A stretch of DNA of 49,244 bases from a virus (IMGVR_UViG_2526164598_000014), one strand, 5' to 3'; counted from the stretch's first letter, positions 8,163-45,251 are shown. The notes: generated by a model from the sequence alone, not told the origin. Numbers and translations are program-made.

Positions 8163-8295
8163 TCTTTGGGACTCCTGGCTGATTAAGTATGTCGATAAGG
8201 CGTTTCCATCCGTCACGTAATTTACGGGTGATTCGTTCAAGTAAAGATTCGGAAGGGCAGCCAGCAACAGGCCACCCTGCAATGGCATATTGCAT
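8131..8295 (-). CDS. cIII: Lambda CIII (FtsH inhibitor, 54 aa)
   Basis: Hand translation from ATG 8293-8295: [54 protein letters not shown]; below ORF-track size cutoff. Confidence 0.9.
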   Translation of the reverse strand: MQYAIAGWPVAGCPSESLLERITRKLRDGWKRLIDILNQPGVPKNGSNTYGYPD

Positions 8296-8367
8296 GGTGT
8301 GCTCCTTATTTATACATAACGAAAAACGCCTCGAGTGAAGCGTTATTGGTATGCGGTAACGCAGCGC

Positions 8368-8736: not shown

Positions 8737-8918
8737 CTATTCATATCCTCATAGATAAAAAATCGCCCTCACATTGGAGGGCAAAGAAGATTTCCAATAA
8801 TCAGAACAAGTCGGCTCCTGTTTAGTTACGAGCGACATTGCTCCGTGTATTCACTCGTTGGAATGAATACACAGTGCAGTGTTTATTCTGTTATTTATGC
8901 CAAAAATAAAGGCCACTA

Positions 8919-9119
8919 TCAGGCAGCTTTGTTGTTCTGTTTACCAAGTTCTCTGGCAATCATTGCCGTCGTTCGTATTGCCCATTTATCGACATATTTC
9001 CCATCTTCCATTACAGGAAACATTTCTTCAGGCTTAACCATGCATTCCGATTGCAGCTTGCATCCATTGCATCGCTTGAATTGTCCACACCATTGATTTT
9101 TATCAATAGTCGTAGTCAT
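8919..9119 (-). CDS. ral: Lambda Ral restriction alleviation protein
   Basis: 66-aa ORF matching lambda Ral (MTTTIDKNQWCGQFKRCNGCKLQSECMVKPEEMF...). Confidence 0.95.
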   Translation of the reverse strand: MTTTIDKNQWCGQFKRCNGCKLQSECMVKPEEMFPVMEDGKYVDKWAIRTTAMIARELGKQNNKAA

Positions 9120-9264
9120 ACGGATAGTCCTGGTATTGTTCCATCACATCCTGAGCATGCTCTTCGAACTCTTTAGACTGGCCCCCTGAATCTCCAGACA
9201 ACCAATATCACTTAAATAAGTGATAGTCTTAATACTAGTTTTTAGACTAGTCATTGGAGAGCAG

Positions 9265-9630
9265 ATGATTGATGTCTTAGGACCGGAGAAACGCAGACGG
9301 CGTACTACACAGGAAAAGATCGCTATTGTTCAGCAGAGTTTTGAACCGGGAATGACGGTCTCCCTTGTTGCCCGGCAACACGGTGTGGCAGCCAGCCAGT
9401 TATTTCTCTGGCGCAAGCAATACCAGGAGGGAAGTCTTACTGCTGTGGCCGCAGGAGAGCAGGTCGTTCCTGCCTCTGAACTTGCTGCTGCCATGAAGCA
9501 GATTAAAGAACTCCAGCGCCTGCTCGGCAAAAAAACGATGGAAAATGAACTCCTTAAAGAAGCCGTTGAATACGGGCGTGCAAAAAAGTGGATAGCGCAC
9601 GCGCCCTTATTGCCCGGGGATGGGGAGTAA
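9265..9630 (+). CDS. insC: IS2 InsC (orfA, HTH transposase N-terminal protein)
   Basis: [41 protein letters not shown]... matches IS2 InsC as recalled. Confidence 0.9.
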
Positions 9631-10493
9631 GCTTAGTCAGCCGTTGTCTCCGGGTGTCGCGTGCGCAGTTGCACGTAATTCTCAGACGAACCGATGACTG
9701 GAAAGATGGTCGCCGCAGCCGTCACTCAGATGATACGGATGTGCTTCTCCGTATACACCATGTTATCGGAGAGCTGCCCACGTATGGTTATCGTCGGGTA
9801 TGGGCGCTGCTTCGCAGACAGGCCGAACTTGATGGTATGCCTGCGATCAATGCCAAACGTGTTTACCGGATCATGCGCCAGAATGCGCTGTTGCTTGAGC
9901 GAAAAACCGCTGTACCGCCATCGAAACGGGCACATACTGGCAAAGTGGCCGTGAAAGAAAGCAATCAACGATGGTGCTCTGACGGGTTCGAGTTCCGCTG
10001 TGATAACGGAGAAAAACTGCGAGTCACGTTCGCGCTGGACTGCTGTGACCGTGAGGCACTGCACTGGGCAGTCACTACGGGCGGCTTCGACAGTGAAACA
10101 GTACAGGACGTAATGCTGGGAGCGGTGGAACGCCGCTTCGGCAACGAGCTTCCGGCGTCTCCAGTAGAGTGGCTGACGGATAATGGTTCATGCTACCGGG
10201 CTAATGAAACACGGCAGTTTGCCCGGATGTTGGGGCTTGAACCGAAGAACACGGCGGTGCGGAGTCCGGAGAGTAACGGCATAGCAGAGAGCTTCGTGAA
10301 AACGATAAAGCGTGACTACATCAGTATCATGCCTAAACCAGACGGGTTAACGGCAGCAAAGAACCTTGCAGAGGCGTTCGAGCATTATAACGAATGGCAT
10401 CCGCATAGTGCACTGGGTTATCGCTCGCCACGGGAATATCTGCGGCAGCAGGCCAGTAATGGGTTAAGTGATAACAGGTGTCTGGAAATATAG
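9588..10493 (+). CDS. insD: IS2 InsD (orfB, DDE transposase catalytic part)
   Basis: 301-aa ORF matching IS2 InsD as recalled; overlaps insC in -1 frame as expected for the fusion transposase. Confidence 0.9.
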
Positions 10494-10668
10494 GGGCAAA
10501 TCCACTCTTCAAATTCTTCTTCCATATATCACCTTAAATAGTGGATTGCGGTAGTAAAGATTGTGCCTGTCTTTTAACCACATCAGGCTCGGTGGTTCTC
10601 GTGTACCCCTACAGCGAGAAATCGGATAAACTCTATTCACCCCTACAGAGAGCAAAAGAGAAACGCCG

Positions 10669-11250
10669 ATGAACAACTCATGGTGGCAGGAACTAATGCA
10701 TTTTTTCCTGCAAGGAATGACACTTAAACAGTTGATTCATATGCTAATCATCCTGATCATATTGATTATTGTTATGCCGGTAAGCGTAAAAGAATGGATA
10801 AACCTGCATAATCCAGAAATCCTTCCTTATTATTGGATGTATTACATCCTGTTGTTCTGCGTTAGCTATGTGCTTAACGGTGTTGTTAATTCCGCTTATC
10901 ACGCTGTGACTGAAAGAATTGAGGTATCCGCTGCTCAGAAGCGCAAATCTAAAGAAGAAAAATATGTGCAAGATTTGTTTGATTCGTTAACTCTTGGAGA
11001 AAGAGCGTATTTGGCATTCGCTGTAGCCGCGAATAACCAGCTAAAGACAGAAAAGGGAAGCCCTGAAGCAATCTCATTGCTCGAAAAAGGGCTTCTTATT
11101 CGGATACCTTCTGCTACTGGATATCCTGAAATCGACCGTTTTGTTATCCCGGAACGCTATAGAAATGAGTGCTACATTCGGTTTGCCGGGAAGGCAGACA
11201 GCCTTATGGATGAACTTATCGCTCAGGATAAGCATGGCAAAAACAAGTAA
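10669..11250 (+). CDS. sieB: SieB-like superinfection exclusion membrane protein, 193 aa
   Basis: Rightward gene embedded antisense in pL operon between ral and N as in lambda; two hydrophobic segments; AT-rich. Confidence 0.6.
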   Translation: MNNSWWQELMHFFLQGMTLKQLIHMLIILIILIIVMPVSVKEWINLHNPEILPYYWMYYILLFCVSYVLNGVVNSAYHAVTERIEVSAAQKRKSKEEKYVQDLFDSLTLGERAYLAFAVAANNQLKTEKGSPEAISLLEKGLLIRIPSATGYPEIDRFVIPERYRNECYIRFAGKADSLMDELIAQDKHGKNK

Positions 11251-11266
11251 TTAGCAAATGAATTTA

Positions 11267-11539
11267 TCATCTCGCCGTCAGTTGTTTTGATTTCCGGTAG
11301 CCTGCCGCGTAAAGAGCTACGTTCGGAAGACAAGTTGAACCTTCATATTTTCTGGTCAACGTTGTCAGAGTTATCACTTCTGCTCTCATTGCTGGTTTGC
11401 GCTTGCATTGCAAGACCACTCGTGAAGGGGTTGGCCTGTGTAGCTTGTCGGAGCTGATCGCCTCCTGACTTTGCAGATTTGCGCGACGAGCTCTACGGCG
11501 AGAAGCTGCGGTGCCTTTAAATTCTGTTTTTCTGGACAT
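11267..11539 (-). CDS. N: N-type transcription antiterminator, non-lambda allele, 90 aa from ATG 11537-11539
   Basis: Arginine-rich motif near N-terminus (TAASRRRARRANLQ), strong RBS GGGAGG 5 nt upstream, position right of pL/nutL; longer 114-aa ORF in track lacks RBS. Confidence 0.7.
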   Translation of the reverse strand: MSRKTEFKGTAASRRRARRANLQSQEAISSDKLHRPTPSRVVLQCKRKPAMRAEVITLTTLTRKYEGSTCLPNVALYAAGYRKSKQLTAR

Positions 11540-11564: not shown

Positions 11565-11612
11565 GATGCAATCTCGAAGCTCCTCCTGAGACGATTGCTT
11601 CGGCATTGCATC
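11565..11612 (-). promoter_or_regulatory. Long inverted repeat in N leader (GATGCAAT...ATTGCATC with inner GCTTCG/CGAAGC)
   Basis: Perfect 8-bp outer stem and inner stem read from sequence, 26 nt upstream of N start; analogous in position to the lambda N-leader structure. Confidence 0.4.
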
Positions 11613-11637
11613 CCACAGCTTATGTGGTTGGGTGATC

Positions 11638-11684
11638 TGGCTTTTCAGCCACGTAGTCGAGAGTCGACGTTGTTTAAAGAGCCT
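11638..11684 (-). promoter_or_regulatory. nutL: Putative nutL (boxA-like GGCTCTTTA and boxB hairpin TGGCT-GAAA-AGCCA)
   Basis: On the reverse strand, boxA-like element followed about 25 nt later by a 5-bp stem with GAAA-type loop. Confidence 0.45.
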
Positions 11685-11945
11685 GCCAGTCTGTTCCATT
11701 TGGCTTCCAGCGTCCTGCTGACGGTTAAATAGTACGATATGTACTTTACAAGATCAATACAATTTGTTGTAAGTTGGCGTGGTTTTTTATAACGCTTTGT
11801 ATTTAATAGTGTTGTTTTTTAGCGTGGATGTATTGCCTCGGCGATGTAAGGAGAGATCAGAATTGCGTGGTTTAGTGGGTTGCATCTATTTATTTTTCAA
11901 TAAATACAATTGGTTATGTGTTTTTAGGTGGGGCGATCGTGAGGC

Positions 11946-11977
11946 AAAGAAAACCCGGCGCTGAGGCCGGGTTTTTC
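11946..11977. terminator. Bidirectional intrinsic terminator closing the cI-proximal operon (tImm-like)
   Basis: Hairpin CCCGGC-GCTGAG-GCCGGG at 11954-11971 flanked by A-run and T-run; directly after stop of 258-aa gene. Confidence 0.65.
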
Positions 11978-12753
11978 TAGGCTACCAGAGACTCAATCCA
12001 AGAGTCTCTGGTATGGAATGGCAACACTCGTGCGGTATCATTAAATAGTAGTGATAGTTGCTGTAGCTCAGGTGTTAACCCATCGCTGTCAACTATTACA
12101 AATCTATTGTTTATGTCAGGAACGACCTGACTTAAGTCAACAATCTTCCCAACTGTTGAGTGGGCAGTATTCCATCCCTTACTGCTGGCAAGGCTTACCG
12201 TAAACCCGCGTTTTGGTGGTATTAGTCGAGACTCATTCCTTAGCGTTAACGGAACAGTAATGTTATGCCCACTAATACCTTTCACTTTTTCCTTTAAGGC
12301 TAGTCGCTTCCCAAGCCCTGCTGATTTTAAGTAACTGATTACACATTTTTCGAACTTATCGTCTTTGACCTCAGCATACCAATCAGCAGTTTGGGCGGAT
12401 GCAAGAATCCCACCACGAATAACATTTGCAGTTACCTGTCCAACGGACGACTCATCTGCCCACGCAGATATCTCTCCAGAATCATTTAATGAAATTCCTT
12501 GCGAAGCGAGTGATGACCTAATCAGATCAATTTTCTTTTTAGTCAGGTGGATGCCGCGTGATTCAATATTCATCAATGTATCGCAGTAGTCTGTAACCCT
12601 ATACTGACCACTCATCTCTTGAACGAATACACTTATCTGCTCACAATCATCGTAGTATGTGAAGGGACTAATAACGCGCAGCAACGTGTCGCTCATTGGG
12701 TGGCATTCAAACCCGAGCTTAGATATGACTGTTGAACACGTTACATTTCCCAT
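11977..12753 (-). CDS. Hypothetical protein, 258 aa, second gene of operon in the rexAB slot
   Basis: ATG at 12751-12753; overlaps upstream 180-aa gene by 13 nt; AT-rich; no motif I can recognise. Confidence 0.7.
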   Translation of the reverse strand: MGNVTCSTVISKLGFECHPMSDTLLRVISPFTYYDDCEQISVFVQEMSGQYRVTDYCDTLMNIESRGIHLTKKKIDLIRSSLASQGISLNDSGEISAWADESSVGQVTANVIRGGILASAQTADWYAEVKDDKFEKCVISYLKSAGLGKRLALKEKVKGISGHNITVPLTLRNESRLIPPKRGFTVSLASSKGWNTAHSTVGKIVDLSQVVPDINNRFVIVDSDGLTPELQQLSLLFNDTARVLPFHTRDSWIESLVA

Positions 12754-13283
12754 GATAGCTGACCTGATTTATCTTGATTAGGTAAAGGTGGGCTGCCTTC
12801 ATATATGATATTAAGCGCCTCGCAAAAATAATTCCAGTAGCCAAAAAAATCATCTGGCTTGATGTTCGTTTCAAGCTTAAGTGCAATTTCTTCCCCAGCT
12901 GATTCGAAGTACATGTGATAGTGAGGACCTCGAGCCACCTCAACAAAATCTGGATGGTTCACTATAGATTTATTACGGTGTGGCTTGTTATCCGCAGGGT
13001 ACGGGTCAAGCGCGTAAATGCGCCTGTCATGAAGAAACATCACAAATGAAATCTTCACTATATCCACCCCTTCAACGATAGGAGGACGCCAGTGAAGCAT
13101 AAATCTTATGCCTGTGATTGGGTTGCCAATTTCATCAAAAGCTTTGAGATCCAATTTAAACCAGATTGGGGTTCGTCCCTCACTTCCGGTCCATGTAACT
13201 CCGCTAAAAGTTACTTTTTTCAAGCGAGTAATAGCTTGGTCAACCTCTTTCTGGGTAGGCTTAAAGTCGCCTTTTTTAGCCAC
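12741..13283 (-). CDS. Hypothetical protein, 180 aa, first gene of operon in the rexAB slot
   Basis: GTG at 13281-13283 (first in-frame ATG only at codon 62); 46 bp downstream of cI stop; no motif I can recognise. Confidence 0.6.
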   Translation of the reverse strand: MAKKGDFKPTQKEVDQAITRLKKVTFSGVTWTGSEGRTPIWFKLDLKAFDEIGNPITGIRFMLHWRPPIVEGVDIVKISFVMFLHDRRIYALDPYPADNKPHRNKSIVNHPDFVEVARGPHYHMYFESAGEEIALKLETNIKPDDFFGYWNYFCEALNIIYEGSPPLPNQDKSGQLSWEM

Positions 13284-14325: not shown

Positions 14326-14371
14326 CGCTCTTTGTAACAACGGACATTCGTCCTACGTCGCTGAAAAGCGA
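14326..14371 (+). promoter_or_regulatory. nutR: Putative nutR (boxA CGCTCTTT and boxB hairpin TCGCT-GAAA-AGCGA)
   Basis: boxA-like octamer at 14326-14333 and GAAA-loop hairpin at 14358-14371, between cro and cII. Confidence 0.5.
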
Positions 14372-14456
14372 GTTCCAAGATATCTGACCAACTAAGGCCA
14401 TATGCGTTTCCACGCATACCTTTCAACTAACTATTCACTATTGGAAATCTTAAGAA

Positions 14457-14785: not shown

Positions 14786-15684
14786 ATGACAAATACAGCA
14801 AAAATACTCAACTTCGGCAGAGGTAACTTTGCCGGACAGGAGCGTAATGTGGCAGATCTCGATGATGGTTACGCCAGACTATCAAATATGCTGCTTGAGG
14901 CTTATTCGGGCGCAGATCTGACCAAGCGACAGTTTAAAGTGCTGCTTGCCATTCTGCGTAAAACCTATGGGTGGAATAAACCAATGGACAGAATCACCGA
15001 TTCTCAACTTAGCGAGATTACAAAGTTACCTGTCAAACGGTGCAATGAAGCCAAGTTAGAACTCGTCAGAATGAATATTATCAAGCAGCAAGGCGGCATG
15101 TTTGGACCAAATAAAAACATCTCAGAATGGTGTATCCCTCAAAACGAGGGAAAATCCCCTAAAACGAGGGATAAAACATCCCTCAAATTGGGGGATTGCT
15201 ATCCCTCAAAACAGGGGGACACAAAAGACACTATTACAAAAGAAAAAGAAAAGATTATTCGTCCGAGAATTCTGGCGAATCCTCTGACCAGCCAGAAAAC
15301 GACCTTTCTGTGGTGAAACCGGATGCTGCAATTCAGAGCGGCAGCAAGTGGGGGACAGCAGAAGACCTGACCGCCGCAGAGTGGATGTTTGACATGGTGA
15401 AGACCATCGCGCCATCAGCCAGAAAACCGAATTTTGCAGGGTGGGCTAACGATATCCGCCTGATGCGTGAACGTGACGGACGTAACCACCGCGACATGTG
15501 CGTGCTGTTCCGCTGGGCATGCCAGGACAACTTCTGGTCCGGTAACGTGCTTAGCCCGGCCAAACTCCGCGACAAGTGGACCCAGCTCGAAATCAACCGT
15601 AACAAGCAACAGGCAGTCGTGACAGCCAGCAAACCAAAACTCGACCTGACAAACACAGACTGGATTTACGGGGTGGATCTATGA
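14786..15684 (+). pseudogene. O: Lambda O replication initiator, frameshifted (1-nt deletion in A-tract around 15238-15253)
   Basis: N-terminal 150 aa in frame 1 (ends 15316) and lambda-O C-terminal 140 aa in the next frame (to 15684); total span 899 nt, one short of 900. Confidence 0.85.
15134..15219. repeat. ori: ori-lambda iterons (four ~18-bp O-binding repeats ATCCCTCAAAACGAGGGA and variants)
   Basis: Four tandem near-palindromic repeats inside O, followed by the AT-rich tract. Confidence 0.85.
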
Positions 15685-19587: not shown

Positions 19588-20670
19588 TTAGAACTGGTAA
19601 ACCATACCTACAGCAACGATATCATCGGTAGCAACGCCAGATGCTTTCGTGAAATCGCTCTTATCAATCAGGTTGATTTTGTAATCAACAAAAGTGGACA
19701 TATTTTTGTTGAAGTAATAGGTTGCACCTACATCAATATATTCAACCAGGTCCTGATCACCCCACGCACCCAAGTCTTTTCCTTTAGATTGCAGGTAAGC
19801 AACGGACGGACGCAGACCGAAGTCGAACTGATATTGTGCAACTACTTCGAAGTTTTGTGCTTTGTTGGCAATATGGTTATTACCAAAAACAGTCATGTTC
19901 TGGGTTTCAGAATAGGTGGTAGCCAGATAGATGTTGTTCGCATCATATTTCAGACCAGCTGCCCATACTTCAGCATTTTGACCAGATGCATTCAGGCTGT
20001 TGTTACCGTAGATAACCTGATTATTAGTGCGGTCAGATTTAGCATAGGTTGCACCTACACCGAATCCTTCATACTCATAAGTAGTGGAGAAACCGAAACC
20101 ATCACCATTAGCTTCAGTTACGTCAGTGCGGTCATTTTTACCCTGATACTGAGCAGCAAAGTTCAGACCATCAACCAGACCAAAGAAGTCGTTGTTACGA
20201 TAAGTTGCAACACCAGTGGTGCGACCAGTCATGAACACATCTGTTTGGGTCCAGGTATCGCCACCGAATTCTGGCAGAACGTCAGTCCACGCACCGATGT
20301 CGTATGCTACACCGTAGTTACGGCCGTAATCGATTGAGCCGTAGTCACCGAATTTCAGGCCTGCAAATGCAAGACGGGTTTTGTCTTTGGAGGAACCTTG
20401 AGATTCAGCGCGGTTGCCTTTGAATTCATATTCCCACTGACCGAAACCAGTCAGTTGATCGTTGATTTGGGTTTCACCTTTGAAGCCAAGACGGGCATAA
20501 GTAGTATCACCATCATCTGCATCATTAGAGGAGAAGTAGTGCTTAGCATTAACTTTCCCGTACAGATCCAGCTTGTTACTGTCTTTATTATAAATTTCAG
20601 CTGCCTGAGCAGACATCGCCATCAGTACTGATGCAGCTACAGCAGAAATTGCCACTGTTAATTTTTTCAT
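19588..20670 (-). CDS. nmpC: Phage-borne general porin of the OmpC/OmpF/NmpC family, 360 aa
   Basis: Signal peptide plus C-terminal ...VGMVYQF porin signature; sits between Q and holin on the opposite strand as nmpC does in DLP12. Confidence 0.85.
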
Positions 20671-21243: not shown

Positions 21244-21459
21244 ATGAAATCCATGGATAAGTTAACAACGGGTGTCGCCTATGGCACCTCAGCAGGTAGT
21301 GCCGGTTACTGGTTTTTACAGCTGCTCGATAAAGTCACGCCCTCACAGTGGGCAGCAATAGGTGTGCAGGGTAGCCTGGTATTTGGCCTGCTGACGTACC
21401 TGACAAACCTTTATTTCAAGATTAAAGAAGATAAGCGCAAGGCTGCGAGAGGTGAATAA
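21244..21459 (+). CDS. S: Class II pinholin of phage 21 S type, 71 aa, dual-start motif MKSM
   Basis: [58 protein letters not shown]... two TM segments, Met1 and Met4. Confidence 0.9.
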
Positions 21460-21796
21460 TGCCTCCATCATTACGAAAAGCCGTTGCTGCTGCTATTGGT
21501 GGCGGAGCAATTGCTATAGCATCAGTGTTAATCACTGGCCCAAGTGGTAACGATGGTCTGGAAGGTGTCAGCTACATACCATACAAAGATATTGTTGGTG
21601 TATGGACTGTATGTCACGGGCATACAGGAAAAGACATCATGCTCGGTAAAACGTATACCAAAGCAGAATGCAAAGCCCTCCTGAATAAAGACCTTGCCAC
21701 GGTCGCCAGACAAATTAACCCGTACATCAAAGTCGATATTGTCAACGCCAAGATTATTGGCCGTTTTTCGCCATTTTTAATGTCCGCTATTGGTCA

Positions 21797-23763
<1,967 letters not shown>

Positions 23764-24081
23764 GAGTGTTCCCTTTGTGGTGTAGGAACCTTAAGGAAAC
23801 AACATGTTGGGTGGAGCGGACAATCCAAATGGTGAATTACTGTCTTATATCATTGGCGCTGACAATATACCGGAAACAATGCGCGGCGCTCTTTACTCAT
23901 TCGTTTACAACGTGGGTGCTGGCAATTTCAGAACATCGACGCTTCTTCGCAAAATAAACCAGGGCGATATCAAAGGCGCATGTGATCAGCTACGTCGCTG
24001 GACATATGCTGGCGGTAAGCAATGGAAAGGTCTCATGACTCGTCGTGAGATTGAGCGTGAAATCTGTTTGTGGGGTCAGCA

Positions 24082-24540
24082 ATGAACAGAGTAACCGCGA
24101 TTATCTCCGCTCTGGTTATCTGCATCATCGTCGGCCTGTCATGGGCTGTTAATCATTACCGTGATAACGCCATTACCTACAAAGCCCAGCGCGACAAAAA
24201 TGCCAGAGAACTGAAGCTGGCGAACGTGGCAATTACTGACATGCAGATGCGTCAGCGTGATGTTGCTGCGCTCGATGCAAGATACACAAAGGAGCTTGCT
24301 GATGCTAACGCGACTATCGAAAGTCTCCGTGCTGATGTTTCTGCTGGGCGTAAGCGCCTGCAAGTCGCCGCCACCTGTGCAAAGTCAACGACCGGAGCCA
24401 GCGGCATGGGCGATGGAGAAAGCCCAGGACTTACAGCAGATGCTGAACTCAATTATTACCGTCTCCGAAGTGGAATCGACAAGATAACCGCGCAGGTTAA
24501 CTACCTGCAGGAATACATCAGGACGCAATGCCTGAAATAA
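24082..24540 (+). CDS. Rz: Rz inner-membrane spanin
   Basis: N-terminal TM segment, coiled-coil body; ATG at 24082 overlaps endolysin stop. Confidence 0.85.
24302..24487 (+). CDS. Rz1: Rz1 outer-membrane lipoprotein spanin, embedded in +1 frame of Rz
   Basis: ATG at 24302 preceded by AAGGAG; lipoprotein signal [20 protein letters not shown] followed by proline-rich segment. Confidence 0.65.
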
Positions 24541-33121: not shown

Positions 33122-34147
33122 ATGTCGATGTACACAACCGCCCAGCTGCTGGCGGCAAATGAGCAGAAATTTAAGTTTGATCCGCTGTTTCTGCGTCTCT
33201 TTTTCCGTGAGAGCTATCCCTTCACCACGGAGAAAGTCTATCTCTCACAAATTCCGGGACTGGTAAACATGGCGCTGTACGTTTCGCCGATTGTTTCCGG
33301 TGAGGTTATCCGTTCCCGTGGCGGCTCCACCTCTGAATTTACGCCGGGATATGTCAAGCCGAAGCATGAAGTGAATCCGCAGATGACCCTGCGTCGCCTG
33401 CCGGATGAAGATCCGCAGAATCTGGCGGACCCGGCTTACCGCCGCCGTCGCATCATCATGCAGAACATGCGTGACGAAGAGCTGGCCATTGCTCAGGTCG
33501 AAGAGATGCAGGCAGTTTCTGCCGTGCTCAAGGGCAAATACACCATGACCGGTGAAGCCTTCGATCCGGTTGAGGTGGATATGGGCCGCAGTGCGGCGAA
33601 CAACATCACGCAGTCCGGCGGCACGGAGTGGAGCAAGCGTGACAAGTCCACGTATGACCCGACCGACGATATCGAAGCCTACGCGCTGAACGCCAGCGGC
33701 GTGGTGAATATCATCGTGTTTGACCCGAAAGGCTGGGCGCTGTTCCGTTCCTTCAAAGCCGTCAGGGAGAAGCTGGATACCCGTCGCGGCTCTCATTCCG
33801 AACTGGAGACAGCGGTAAAAGACCTGGGCAAAGCGGTGTCTTATAAGGGAATGTATGGCGATGTGGCCATCGTCGTGTATTCCGGACAGTACGTGGAAAA
33901 CGGCGTCAAAAAGAACTTCCTGCCGGACAACACGATGGTGCTGGGTAACACTCATGCACGCGGTCTGCGCACCTATGGCTGTATTCAGGATGCAGATGCA
34001 TTGAGTGAGGGTATTAATGCGTCTCCCCGTTATCCGAAAAACTGGAAGACATCCGGCGATCCGGCGCGAGAGTTCACCATGATTCAGTCAGCACCGCTGA
34101 TGCTGCTGGCTGATCCTGATGAGTTCGTGTCCGTTCAACTGGCGTAA
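33122..34147 (+). CDS. E: Major capsid protein E
   Basis: MSMYTTAQLLAANEQKFKFDPLFLRLFFRESYPF... as lambda gpE. Confidence 0.96.
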   Translation: MSMYTTAQLLAANEQKFKFDPLFLRLFFRESYPFTTEKVYLSQIPGLVNMALYVSPIVSGEVIRSRGGSTSEFTPGYVKPKHEVNPQMTLRRLPDEDPQNLADPAYRRRRIIMQNMRDEELAIAQVEEMQAVSAVLKGKYTMTGEAFDPVEVDMGRSAANNITQSGGTEWSKRDKSTYDPTDDIEAYALNASGVVNIIVFDPKGWALFRSFKAVREKLDTRRGSHSELETAVKDLGKAVSYKGMYGDVAIVVYSGQYVENGVKKNFLPDNTMVLGNTHARGLRTYGCIQDADALSEGINASPRYPKNWKTSGDPAREFTMIQSAPLMLLADPDEFVSVQLA

Positions 34148-42429: not shown

Positions 42430-45251
42430 TGAAAAACGTTTATGTGAAACCGCCTCCGGGCGGTTTTGTCGTTTATGGAGCGTGAGGAATGGGTAAAGGC
42501 AGCAGTAAGGGGCATACTCCGCGCGAAGCGAAGGACAACCTGAAGTCCACGCAGTTGCTGAGTGTGATCGATGCCATCAGCGAAGGGCCGGTTGAAGGTC
42601 CGGTGGATGGATTAAAAAGCGTGCTGCTGAACAGTACGCCAGTGCTGGACAGTGAGGGGAATACCAATATCTCCGGCGTCACGGTGGTGTTCCGGGCCGG
42701 TGAGCAGGAGCAGACACCGCCGGAGGGATTTGAATCCTCCGGCTCCGAGACGGTGCTGGGTACGGAAGTGAAATACGACACGCCGATCACCCGGACCATC
42801 ACGTCGGCAAACATTGACCGACTGCGTTTTACCTTCGGCGTGCAGGCACTGGTGGAAACCACCTCAAAGGGGGACAGGAATCCGTCGGAAGTCCGCCTGC
42901 TGGTTCAGATCCAGCGTAATGGTGGCTGGGTGACGGAAAAAGACATCACCATTAAGGGCAAAACCACCTCGCAGTATCTGGCCTCGGTGGTGGTGGGTAA
43001 CCTGCCGCCGCGCCCGTTCAATATACGGATGCGCAGGATGACGCCGGACAGCACCACAGACCAGCTGCAGAACAAAACGCTCTGGTCGTCATACACCGAA
43101 ATCATCGATGTGAAACAGGGCTACCCGAACACGGCACTGGTCGGCGTGCAGGTGGATTCGGAGCAGTTCGGCAGCCAGCAGGTGAGCCGTAATTATCATC
43201 TGCGCGGGCGCATTCTGCAGGTGCCGTCGAACTATAGCCCGCAGACGCGGCAATACAGCGGTATCTGGGACGGAACGTTTAAACCGGCATACAGCAACAA
43301 CATGGCCTGGTGTCTGTGGGATATGCTGACCCATCCGCGCTACGGCATGGGGAAACGTCTTGGTGCGGCGGATGTGGACAAATGGGCGCTGTATGTCATC
43401 GGCCAGTACTGCGACCAGTCAGTGCCGGACGGCTTTGGCGGCACGGAGCCGCGCATCACCTGTAATGCGTACCTGACCACACAGCGCAAGGCGTGGGATG
43501 TGCTCAGTGATTTCTGCTCGGCGATGCGCTGTATGCCGGTATGGAACGGGCAGACGCTGACGTTCGTGCAGGACCGACCATCAGATAAGGTGTGGACCTA
43601 TAACCGCAGTAATGTGGTGATGCCGGATGATGGCGCGCCGTTCCGCTACAGCTTCAGCGCCCTGAAGGACCGCCATAATGCCGTTGAGGTGAACTGGATT
43701 GACCCGGATAACGGCTGGGAGACGGCGACAGAGCTTGTGGAGGACACGCAGGCCATTGCCCGTTACGGTCGTAACGTCACGAAGATGGATGCCTTTGGCT
43801 GTACCAGCCGGGGCAGGCACATCGCGCCGGGCTGTGGCTGATTAAAACAGAACTGCTGGAAACGCAGACCGTGGACTTCAGCGTGGGCGCAGAAGGGCTT
43901 CGCCATGTGCCGGGCGATGTCATTGAAATCTGTGATGATGACTATGCCGGTATCAGCATCGGCGGGCGCGTGCTGGCGGTAAACAGCCAGACCCGGACGC
44001 TGACGCTCGACCGTGAAATCACGCTGCCATTCTCCGGTACCACGCTGATAAGCCTGGTTGACGGAAGTGGCAATCCGGTCAGCGTGGAGGTTCAGTCCGT
44101 CACCGACGGCGTGAAGGTGAAAGTGAGCCGTGTTCCTGACGGCGTTGCTGAATACAGCGTGTGGGGGCTGAAGCTGCCGACGCTGCGCCAGCGCCTGTTC
44201 CGCTGCGTGAGTATCCGTGAGAACGACGACGGCACATATGCCATCACCGCCGTGCAGCATGTACCGGAAAAAGAAGCCATCGTGGATAACGGGGCGCACT
44301 TTGACGGCGACCAGAGCGGCACGGTGAATGGTGTCACGCCGCCAGCGGTGCAGCACCTGACTGCCGAAGTCACCGCAGACAGCGGGGAATATCAGGTGCT
44401 GGCGCGCTGGGACACGCCGAAGGTGGTGAAGGGCGTGAGCTTCCTGCTCCGTCTGACCGTAACAGCGGATGACGGCAGTGAGCGGCTGGTCAGCACGGCC
44501 CGGACGACGGAAACCACTTACCGCTTCACACAACTGGCGCTGGGGAACTACAGGCTGACAGTCCGGGCAGTAAATGCGTGGGGGCAGCAGGGCGATCCGG
44601 CGTCGGTATCGTTCCGGATTGCCGCACCGGCAGCGCCGTCGCGGATTGAGCTGACGCCGGGCTATTTTCAGATAACCGCCACGCCGCATCTTGCGGTTTA
44701 TGATCCGACGGTACAGTTTGAGTTCTGGTTCTCGGAAAAGCGGATTGCGGATATCAGGCAGGTTGAAACCACAGCACGCTATCTTGGCACGGCGCTGTAC
44801 TGGATAGCCGCCAGTATCAATATCAAACCGGGCCATGATTATTACTTTTATATCCGCAGTGTGAACACCGTTGGCAAATCGGCATTCGTGGAGGCTGTTG
44901 GTCAGCCGAGTGATGATGCATCCGGTTATCTGGATTTTTTCAAAGGCGAGATAGGGAAAACCCATCTGGCTCAGGAGCTGTGGACGCAGATTGATAACGG
45001 TCAGCTTGCGCCTGACCTGGCTGAAATCAGGACGTCCATTACGGATGTCAGCAATGAAATCACGCAGACCGTCAATAAGAAACTGGAAAACCAGAGTGCG
45101 GCAATTCAGCAGATACAGAAGGTTCAGGTTGATACAAATAATAACCTGAACAGCATGTGGGCTGTGAAGCTGCAGCAGATGCAGGACGGACGCCTTTATA
45201 TCGCGGGTATTGGTGCCGGTAGTAAGCGGCTCGTCAGAACCGTATTGATAT

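Follow-up and report, generated by a model that had tools for sequence, protein, structure and literature searches.

Does an insertion sequence (IS) that lands between an early phage promoter and the genes served by that promoter silence those genes, when the phage's own antiterminator is encoded ahead of the insertion? The question is raised by the viral sequence IMGVR_UViG_2526164598_000014, a stretch of 49,244 nucleotides that we refer to as the window; positions are counted from its first letter, and the strand presented is taken as the plus strand. A complete IS2, a member of the IS3 family, lies at 9174-10504 (1331 bp, plus strand) in the early-left (pL) operon of a lambda-like prophage. 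We think it probable that this is a recent, lineage-private insertion made by copy-and-paste transposition, that it would render ral dependent on the antiterminator N while exerting only partial polarity farther downstream, and that it represents neutral decay rather than a regulatory device.

The IS2 element and its target site

The element opens at 9174 with TAGACTGGCCCCC, within the left inverted repeat (IRL), and closes at 10504 with GGGGCAAATCCA, within the right inverted repeat (IRR), a span of 1331 bp; its ends read TAGACTGG... on the left and ...AAATCCA on the right. IS2 copies that match it at all 1331 bases (100% identity) occur in several E. coli chromosomes and plasmids. Both repeats are imperfect and they differ in length: IRL covers 42 bp and starts with TA (9174-9215, plus strand; recovered arm 9183-9215), and IRR covers 41 bp and ends with CA (10464-10504, plus strand; recovered arm 10464-10496). 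These lengths, and the asymmetry of the IS2 ends, follow the definition given by Lewis et al. 2012 (PMC3299598).

The coding content is that of a full transposase system. The first gene, orfA (9265-9630, plus strand), encodes 121 aa that serve as the DNA-binding regulator and the N-terminal part of the transposase; it matched the NCBIfam model NF006928, 'IS2 repressor TnpA', over residues 1-121 of 121 at 276 bits (cutoff 229) and carries the Pfam domain HTH_Tnp_1. The second, orfB (9588-10493, plus strand), encodes the 301-aa DDE catalytic part; it matched NF006918, 'IS2 transposase TnpB', over residues 1-301 of 301 at 706 bits (cutoff 597) and carries the Pfam domains rve and rve_3. An A6G slippery window, AAAAAAG, was read from the sequence at 9582-9588 (plus strand), and its role in the programmed -1 frameshift that makes the OrfAB transposase is described in the same source (PMC3299598). 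Every sequence feature for transposition is intact. The ends, orfA and orfB, the A6G window, the rve DDE domain and the 5-bp target duplication are all shared with catalogued IS2 (for example, the insC/insD copies), and location is the sole difference of this copy.

Direct reading of the flanks showed a target-site duplication, CTCTT, at 9169-9173 on the left and at 10505-10509 on the right. An A precedes both copies, such that six bases are repeated and the IS2 boundary carries a small ambiguity; we gave that extra A to IS2 because the canonical IS2 end is ...CA-3'. Joining the flanks with one CTCTT produced an 800-bp sequence that matched prophages in 291 complete E. coli genomes, the best match having 99.9% identity in a single ungapped piece. 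The rejoined flanks also matched phages, among them HK140 (99.0%) and ev207 (~99%). In the alignment with the prophage of E. coli F5, a lone CTCTT falls precisely at the join, and the 3 kb on either side of the insertion are colinear with the F5 prophage (5945 matches in 6000 positions) with no internal gaps; the event was therefore a simple insertion, with no deletion or rearrangement alongside. Because the rejoined flanks match known uninterrupted sequence, the CTCTT repeat is better evidence than a 5-bp identity that could arise by coincidence once in 1024.

The initial annotation of this locus had described a complete 1331-bp IS2 at 9174-10504, flanked by a perfect 5-bp CTCTT direct repeat and oriented against pL transcription. 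Its limits were exact, as the ends, the protein models and the 100% identity agree. Both copies of the repeat were read, and relatives have a single copy; the comparison with uninterrupted relatives that it had proposed as a check gave the expected answer, in that the F5 prophage and the 99.9%-identical empty sites hold one CTCTT. The orientation was also correct: the IS2 transposase genes are on the plus strand, whereas the genes of the pL operon are on the minus strand. The same annotation had placed the insertion in an intergenic region between sieB/N and ral. The neighbors were named correctly, but the site is not intergenic, since a homolog of lambda orf28 is cut there after codon 7.

The surroundings define the context of the insertion. 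Read from its left end, the window contains the host gene ybhC, then the lambda att core (1331-1345), then int and xis genes of the lambda type. The prophage is lambda-like and occupies attB-lambda, beside ybhC in an E. coli-type chromosome. Along the minus strand the order is the pL region, nutL, N, sieB (antisense), IS2, ral, a terminator, ea10, cIII, kil, gam, bet and exo, continuing to xis and int. The operator/promoter region is at ~11.73-11.76 kb, with a motif, GTAAAGTACATAT, in common with the cI-cro intergenic region. IS2 thereby sits in the promoter-proximal unit that runs from pL through nutL, N, orf28 and ral to the terminator.

The gene immediately downstream of the insertion, ral (restriction alleviation; 8919-9119, minus strand, 66 aa), is intact, with a match to phrog_1055 at 1.7e-49 and 100% identity to lambda Ral. 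It starts 55 bp from the left end of IS2 and keeps its own ribosome-binding site, AGGA, 8 nt ahead of the ATG. The gap between ral and ea10 contains an intrinsic terminator (8753-8784, minus strand), identified by a terminator scan and composed of a GCCCTC...GAGGGC hairpin, with a predicted fold of -14.5 kcal/mol, and a T-run. It is nearly identical to lambda 33925-33950, the position of tL1 on the lambda map. Rfam returned only the cIII thermoregulator (Lambda_thermo, 8250-8308) among known RNA families close to the IS2 site.

We searched for the same junctions elsewhere. In 5426 complete E. coli genomes, BLAST returned no hit to the left junction with a coverage of 80% or more, and BLAST of the right junction found no match in the phage collection. 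Exact junction scans found none in GTDB one-genome-per-species contigs, metagenome contigs or viral contigs. The ral-sieB interval was free of insertions in the 25 loci that span both sides (among 80 viral loci) and shows no sign of being an IS hot spot. The insertion looks like a private, recent and probably neutral event, and the entry of IS2 into a prophage is a routine, already known kind of event.

Polarity and the N/nut module

Whether the insertion matters for the genes beyond it depends on what polymerase encounters before reaching IS2. The antiterminator gene N (11267-11539, minus strand, 90 aa) is intact and is upstream of IS2 in the direction of pL transcription. Its product matched the Pfam family N_peptide (PF25694) at 111 bits (cut-off 27.9) and phrog_271, contains an arginine-rich motif (...AASRRRARRAN...), and is identical to N of phage PhiR11_1 and of the F5 prophage. 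A candidate nutL at 11639-11682 (minus strand) consists of the boxA-like GCTCTTTAA, a spacer hairpin, TACGT and the boxB hairpin GGCUGAAAAGCC; this motif occurs once in the window, with 0 occurrences expected by chance. The pL/nutL stretch at 11600-11780 is base-for-base identical to that of PhiR11_1, a plaque-forming relative whose record gives E. coli K-12 MG1655 as host. N is ~0.8 kb, and nutL ~1.1 kb, upstream of the insertion.

The nutR site, downstream of cro (~14326-14372, plus strand), repeats the series seen in nutL: boxA, spacer hairpin, TACGT and a boxB with a GAAAA loop. Stems of the two sites differ by compensatory changes (GTCGA/TCGAC in one versus GGAC/GTCC in the other, and GGCU/AGCC versus CGCU/AGCG). 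The combination of boxA, spacer hairpin, TACGT and GAAAA-loop boxB is an unusual nut layout.

A terminator scan predicted no intrinsic terminator within IS2 on the pL-sense (minus) strand; therefore, any polarity would be Rho-dependent, which is the kind that N overcomes. The insertion adds 1.3 kb of antisense IS2 sequence to the stretch from N to ral, and this sequence is presumably untranslated past a 35-codon fusion open reading frame (ORF; see below). In the absence of N, transcripts bound for ral would be ended by Rho inside IS2, and ral would thereby be switched from N-independent to N-dependent expression. Transcription lacking N would in any case stop at the terminator just past ral. 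After induction, N would still be made, being encoded upstream of IS2, and would load at nutL ahead of the element; the N-modified polymerase would then be carried through IS2 to ea10, cIII, kil, gam, bet, exo, xis and int. With N, most polymerases able to pass the terminator after ral should also be able to pass IS2. Polarity on the genes from ea10 to int would thus be partial, and severe only where N or Nus function is limiting.

The initial annotation had anticipated that the insertion should be polar on all of the genes from ral to int. A partial effect of that sort is what we expect; a strong block is doubtful, given the intact N and nutL upstream. A strongly polar insertion combines an IS between the promoter and the downstream genes of one unit, which is the arrangement found here, with terminators that act in the direction of operon transcription and with entering transcription that is not resistant to terminators. 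The last of these does not apply here, as polymerase is expected to be N-modified after induction. Because IS2 is downstream of intact N and nutL, strong polarity on ral through int is unlikely. The likely effects are the loss of orf28, a ral gene that depends on N, and a modest drop in expression further downstream.

Two known systems resemble this arrangement. In galEP3 (gal3), IS2 is inserted at the start of the gal operon; IS2 carries Rho-dependent terminators, and its polarity on the genes downstream in galEP3 is Rho-dependent (PMC3737525). Such terminators may also act in the pL direction here. Adhya, Gottesman and de Crombrugghe (1974) are cited, by title, for the suppression of IS polarity by N-modified polymerase (in PMC2147009), and the same citation covers the release of galEP3-type polarity when N-modified transcription enters from a lambda prophage. 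The gal operon has no resident antitermination, whereas the present operon has its own N and nutL just upstream of IS2. The second system is a pair of lambda phages, r32 and r14, in which insertion elements increase termination. Both form plaques on wild-type hosts but are hypersensitive to impaired Nus function, with a greater defect than wild-type lambda shows in nusA1 and delta-nusB strains (PMC4807359). As in the present prophage, the early promoter and its nut site are separated from the delayed-early genes by an IS, which adds terminators that N-modified polymerase has to pass. In r32 and r14, the IS occupies the rightward (pR) operon and precedes O and P, both of which are essential; here the operon is the leftward one, and N and nut are of non-lambda specificity. 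The r32 insertion is itself IS2. The pL operon genes other than N are all dispensable for plaque formation in lambda (PMC10695390).

Quantitative data are available for N of the lambdoid phage H-19B, which allowed 34% read-through with one Rho terminator and 32% with two in series (PMC3526286). The small change on adding the second terminator implies that extra terminators cost little after N modification.

A contrasting interpretation is that IS2 is a strong polar block, leaving ral, ea10, cIII, kil, gam, bet, exo, xis and int essentially unexpressed from pL after induction, with a prophage that neither excises nor is Red-proficient. We regard this as unlikely, and several observations that weigh against our preferred reading give it some substance. 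IS2 separates pL from all of these genes and is antiparallel to them, which is probably the strongly polar 'orientation I' of the older literature. Antisense IS2 RNA, presumably untranslated after the fusion ORF, is C-rich (389 C versus 314 G) and contains several rut-like windows, as scored by a C/G heuristic that is itself crude. N and the nut sites are of a non-lambda immunity type, and their efficiency at IS2 terminators may differ from that of lambda. Besides the Rho-dependent terminators known in IS2 (PMC3737525), N read-through is incomplete, at ~30-50% in reporter assays (PMC3526286), and we therefore expect the added 1.3 kb of untranslated RNA to cause some loss. Against a strong block, N and nutL are intact, upstream of IS2 and identical to those of a plaque-forming phage, and IS2 is predicted to contain no intrinsic terminator that would act on pL transcription. 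That N relieves IS polarity is textbook knowledge and one of the founding observations in the field (Adhya et al. 1974, by title, as cited in PMC2147009), and lambda with insertion elements in the N-dependent pR operon grows on wild-type hosts (PMC4807359).

Two further explanations concern the origin of the insertion instead of its effect. Under selected domestication, weaker pL-driven kil, xis and int, or the loss of orf28 and ral function, would lower the lethality of accidental induction and hold the prophage at its site. Other insertion sequences have cost this prophage the lysis gene R and the tail gene J, which fits the trajectory of a harmless resident, and it has kept intact both sieB and the accessory genes at the rex position. 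However, the insertion was in no other genome searched, with no sign of spread or recurrence; no other IS occupies this interval among the 25 spanning loci; neutral decay in an IS-rich host explains three IS hits equally well; and N read-through would blunt the protective effect. We consider domestication quite improbable on these grounds, and find it harder still to credit that IS2 was misplaced by repeat mis-assembly. IS2 is indeed multicopy (a near-full copy is present in 4060 of the 5426 complete E. coli genomes, at a median of 4 places per IS2-bearing genome), and two single-base homopolymer frameshifts, in O and J, may point to error-prone long reads. Nevertheless, real transposition is what leaves a perfect 5-bp duplication of a single-copy target together with precise termini and colinear flanks, and target-site duplications are not created by mis-assembly. 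The most fitting description of the insertion is neutral decay, in a prophage that is defective and a host that is rich in insertion sequences.

The interrupted gene orf28

In the annotation of lambda, orf28 (lambdap47) is a gene of 28 codons that begins upstream of ral and finishes 17 nt inside it. Translation to the right of IS2 identified the 5' fragment of its homolog at 10505-10525 (minus strand), with the ATG at 10525-10523 and codons 1-7. Reconstruction placed the 3' fragment, comprising the rest of the gene and its stop codon, at 9103-9173 (minus strand), overlapping the first 17 nt of ral. The rebuilt empty site encodes MEEEFEEFEEHAQDVMEQYQDYPYDYDY, which is identical to lambda orf28 in 27 of 28 residues, with P12A as the sole substitution, and is preceded by a strong Shine-Dalgarno sequence, AAGGTGA. 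Position, Shine-Dalgarno and the 17-nt overlap with ral are the same as in lambda; the copy here differs by P12A and by its interruption after codon 7. At the split, the stub gains 28 codons of antisense IS2 before a stop codon, forming the 35-codon fusion ORF. The insertion destroys orf28, and ral loses any translational coupling to it.

Several observations bear on whether orf28 is a gene in its own right. Its product is highly acidic, has 28 residues and belongs to the family phrog_16060. Among viral contigs that carry a lambda-type ral, all 65 that could be analysed have an intact orf28. One and the same peptide is found from lambda to P22, and in SE10 and Sf6; ST64T and vB_ST415_1NRH also retain the ORF, even though the Ral proteins of these phages are down to 74-80% identity. 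In Sf6, ST64T and vB_ST415_1NRH, the sequence ahead of orf28 is unrelated, as N or another gene replaces sieB, and homology restarts just before the orf28 Shine-Dalgarno. The position of these mosaic joints, just upstream of the Shine-Dalgarno, indicates that orf28 and ral move as one block.

Nucleotide variation supplied a separate view. Among 15 distinct nucleotide versions of the part of orf28 that does not overlap ral, the variable sites at codon positions 1, 2 and 3 numbered 2, 2 and 13, respectively (Fisher p = 2.9e-5). We read this pattern as the mark of protein-level (purifying) selection on orf28. The gene thus appears to be a conserved coding gene linked to ral, a mildly new by-product of the analysis.

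A more ambitious proposal is that orf28 is a functional acidic microprotein of 28 residues and forms with ral a two-gene module that moves as one among lambda-like and P22-like phages, perhaps with translational coupling between the two genes; the IS2 insertion would then be a natural orf28 knockout in which ral has been made N-dependent. We hold the case for this proposal to be evenly balanced. Knockdown of lambda orf28 by CRISPR interference (CRISPRi) gave no plaque defect, and the gene was scored as non-essential (PMC10695390). A literature search on what orf28 does, and on whether it is translated, turned up strain lists and the CRISPRi table only.

Neighboring genes and other lesions of the prophage

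On the other side of IS2, the superinfection exclusion gene sieB (10669-11250, plus strand, 193 aa) is intact, matches phrog_1301 at 1.5e-122 and is annotated in relatives. It starts 165 bp past the right end of IS2 and has the same direction as the IS2 genes. Its expression is probably unaffected, the native 165 bp upstream being retained. A consensus scan found no outward or sigma-70-like hybrid promoter near the IRR end directed into sieB; an IRR hexamer, TGGAAA, spaced 17 nt from TCTTCA, was noticed by eye and rejected as a hybrid promoter, as TCTTCA is unusable as a -10 element. The same scan found no outward promoter near the IRL end directed into ral. Just ahead of the sieB start codon (~10607-10650, plus strand) are two direct copies of CCCCTACAG(C/A)GAG, ~33 bp apart, possibly an operator or promoter element.

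The IS2 insertion is one of three in this prophage, and the other two have interrupted genes for lysis and for the tail. An IS21-family element of 2125 bp (21740-23864), flanked by the duplication ATAT (21736-21739 and 23865-23868), carries confirmed istA (22591-23763) and istB (21797-22594) genes on the minus strand. It splits the endolysin gene R at codon 93, leaving residues 1-94 at 21459-21740 and residues 93-165 at 23864-24082. An IS66-family element of 2699 bp (45222-47920), flanked by the duplication TGCCGGTA (45214-45221 and 47921-47928), splits the tail-tip gene J near residue 882. Its genes are on the minus strand: tnpA (47190-47867) and tnpC (45252-46823) were confirmed, and a 115-codon ORF at 46843-47190 was assigned to tnpB by position only. 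Together, the IS2, IS21-family and IS66-family elements add 6155 bp.

Two smaller lesions, each shifting the frame of an essential gene, are of a different kind. J has a frameshift from a one-base deletion near 43812 (GGGG versus GGGGG in a relative), and the replication gene O has a frameshift from a one-base deletion in an A-run near 15243, just past the origin iterons. Both homopolymer deletions could be real decay or long-read sequencing errors; the IS insertions cannot be errors. The genes int, xis, exo, cI, cro, P, Q and S are intact.

Two sets of accessory genes were observed in passing. The rexA/rexB position, from cI to pL (11977-13283, minus strand), encodes a 180-aa protein with a weak DUF6978 match and a 258-aa DUF1828 protein. 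This pair weakly matches the PADLOC candidate defence system PDC-M24 A and B (E = 4e-4 and 5e-7, respectively) and could represent an exclusion cassette not yet characterised. An OmpD/NmpC-type porin gene (19588-20670, minus strand) is carried as a moron between Q and the lysis genes, and is likewise present in the ECOR phages PhiR11_1 and PhiR49_1.

As judged from its gene content, this prophage cannot make lysis-competent, infectious particles, whatever IS2 does. Any effect of IS2 on phage yield is moot because R and J, and possibly O, are already broken; what remains relevant to the host is excision, Red function, Kil toxicity and Ral. For annotation, and for judging inducibility, the lesson is that the rest of an operon should not be presumed silent just because an IS lies downstream of N and nutL. 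The inactivating lesions here are those in R, J and perhaps O, rather than IS2. At the site of the insertion itself, orf28 always accompanies ral, and the source strain, if available, would be a ready-made orf28 disruption.

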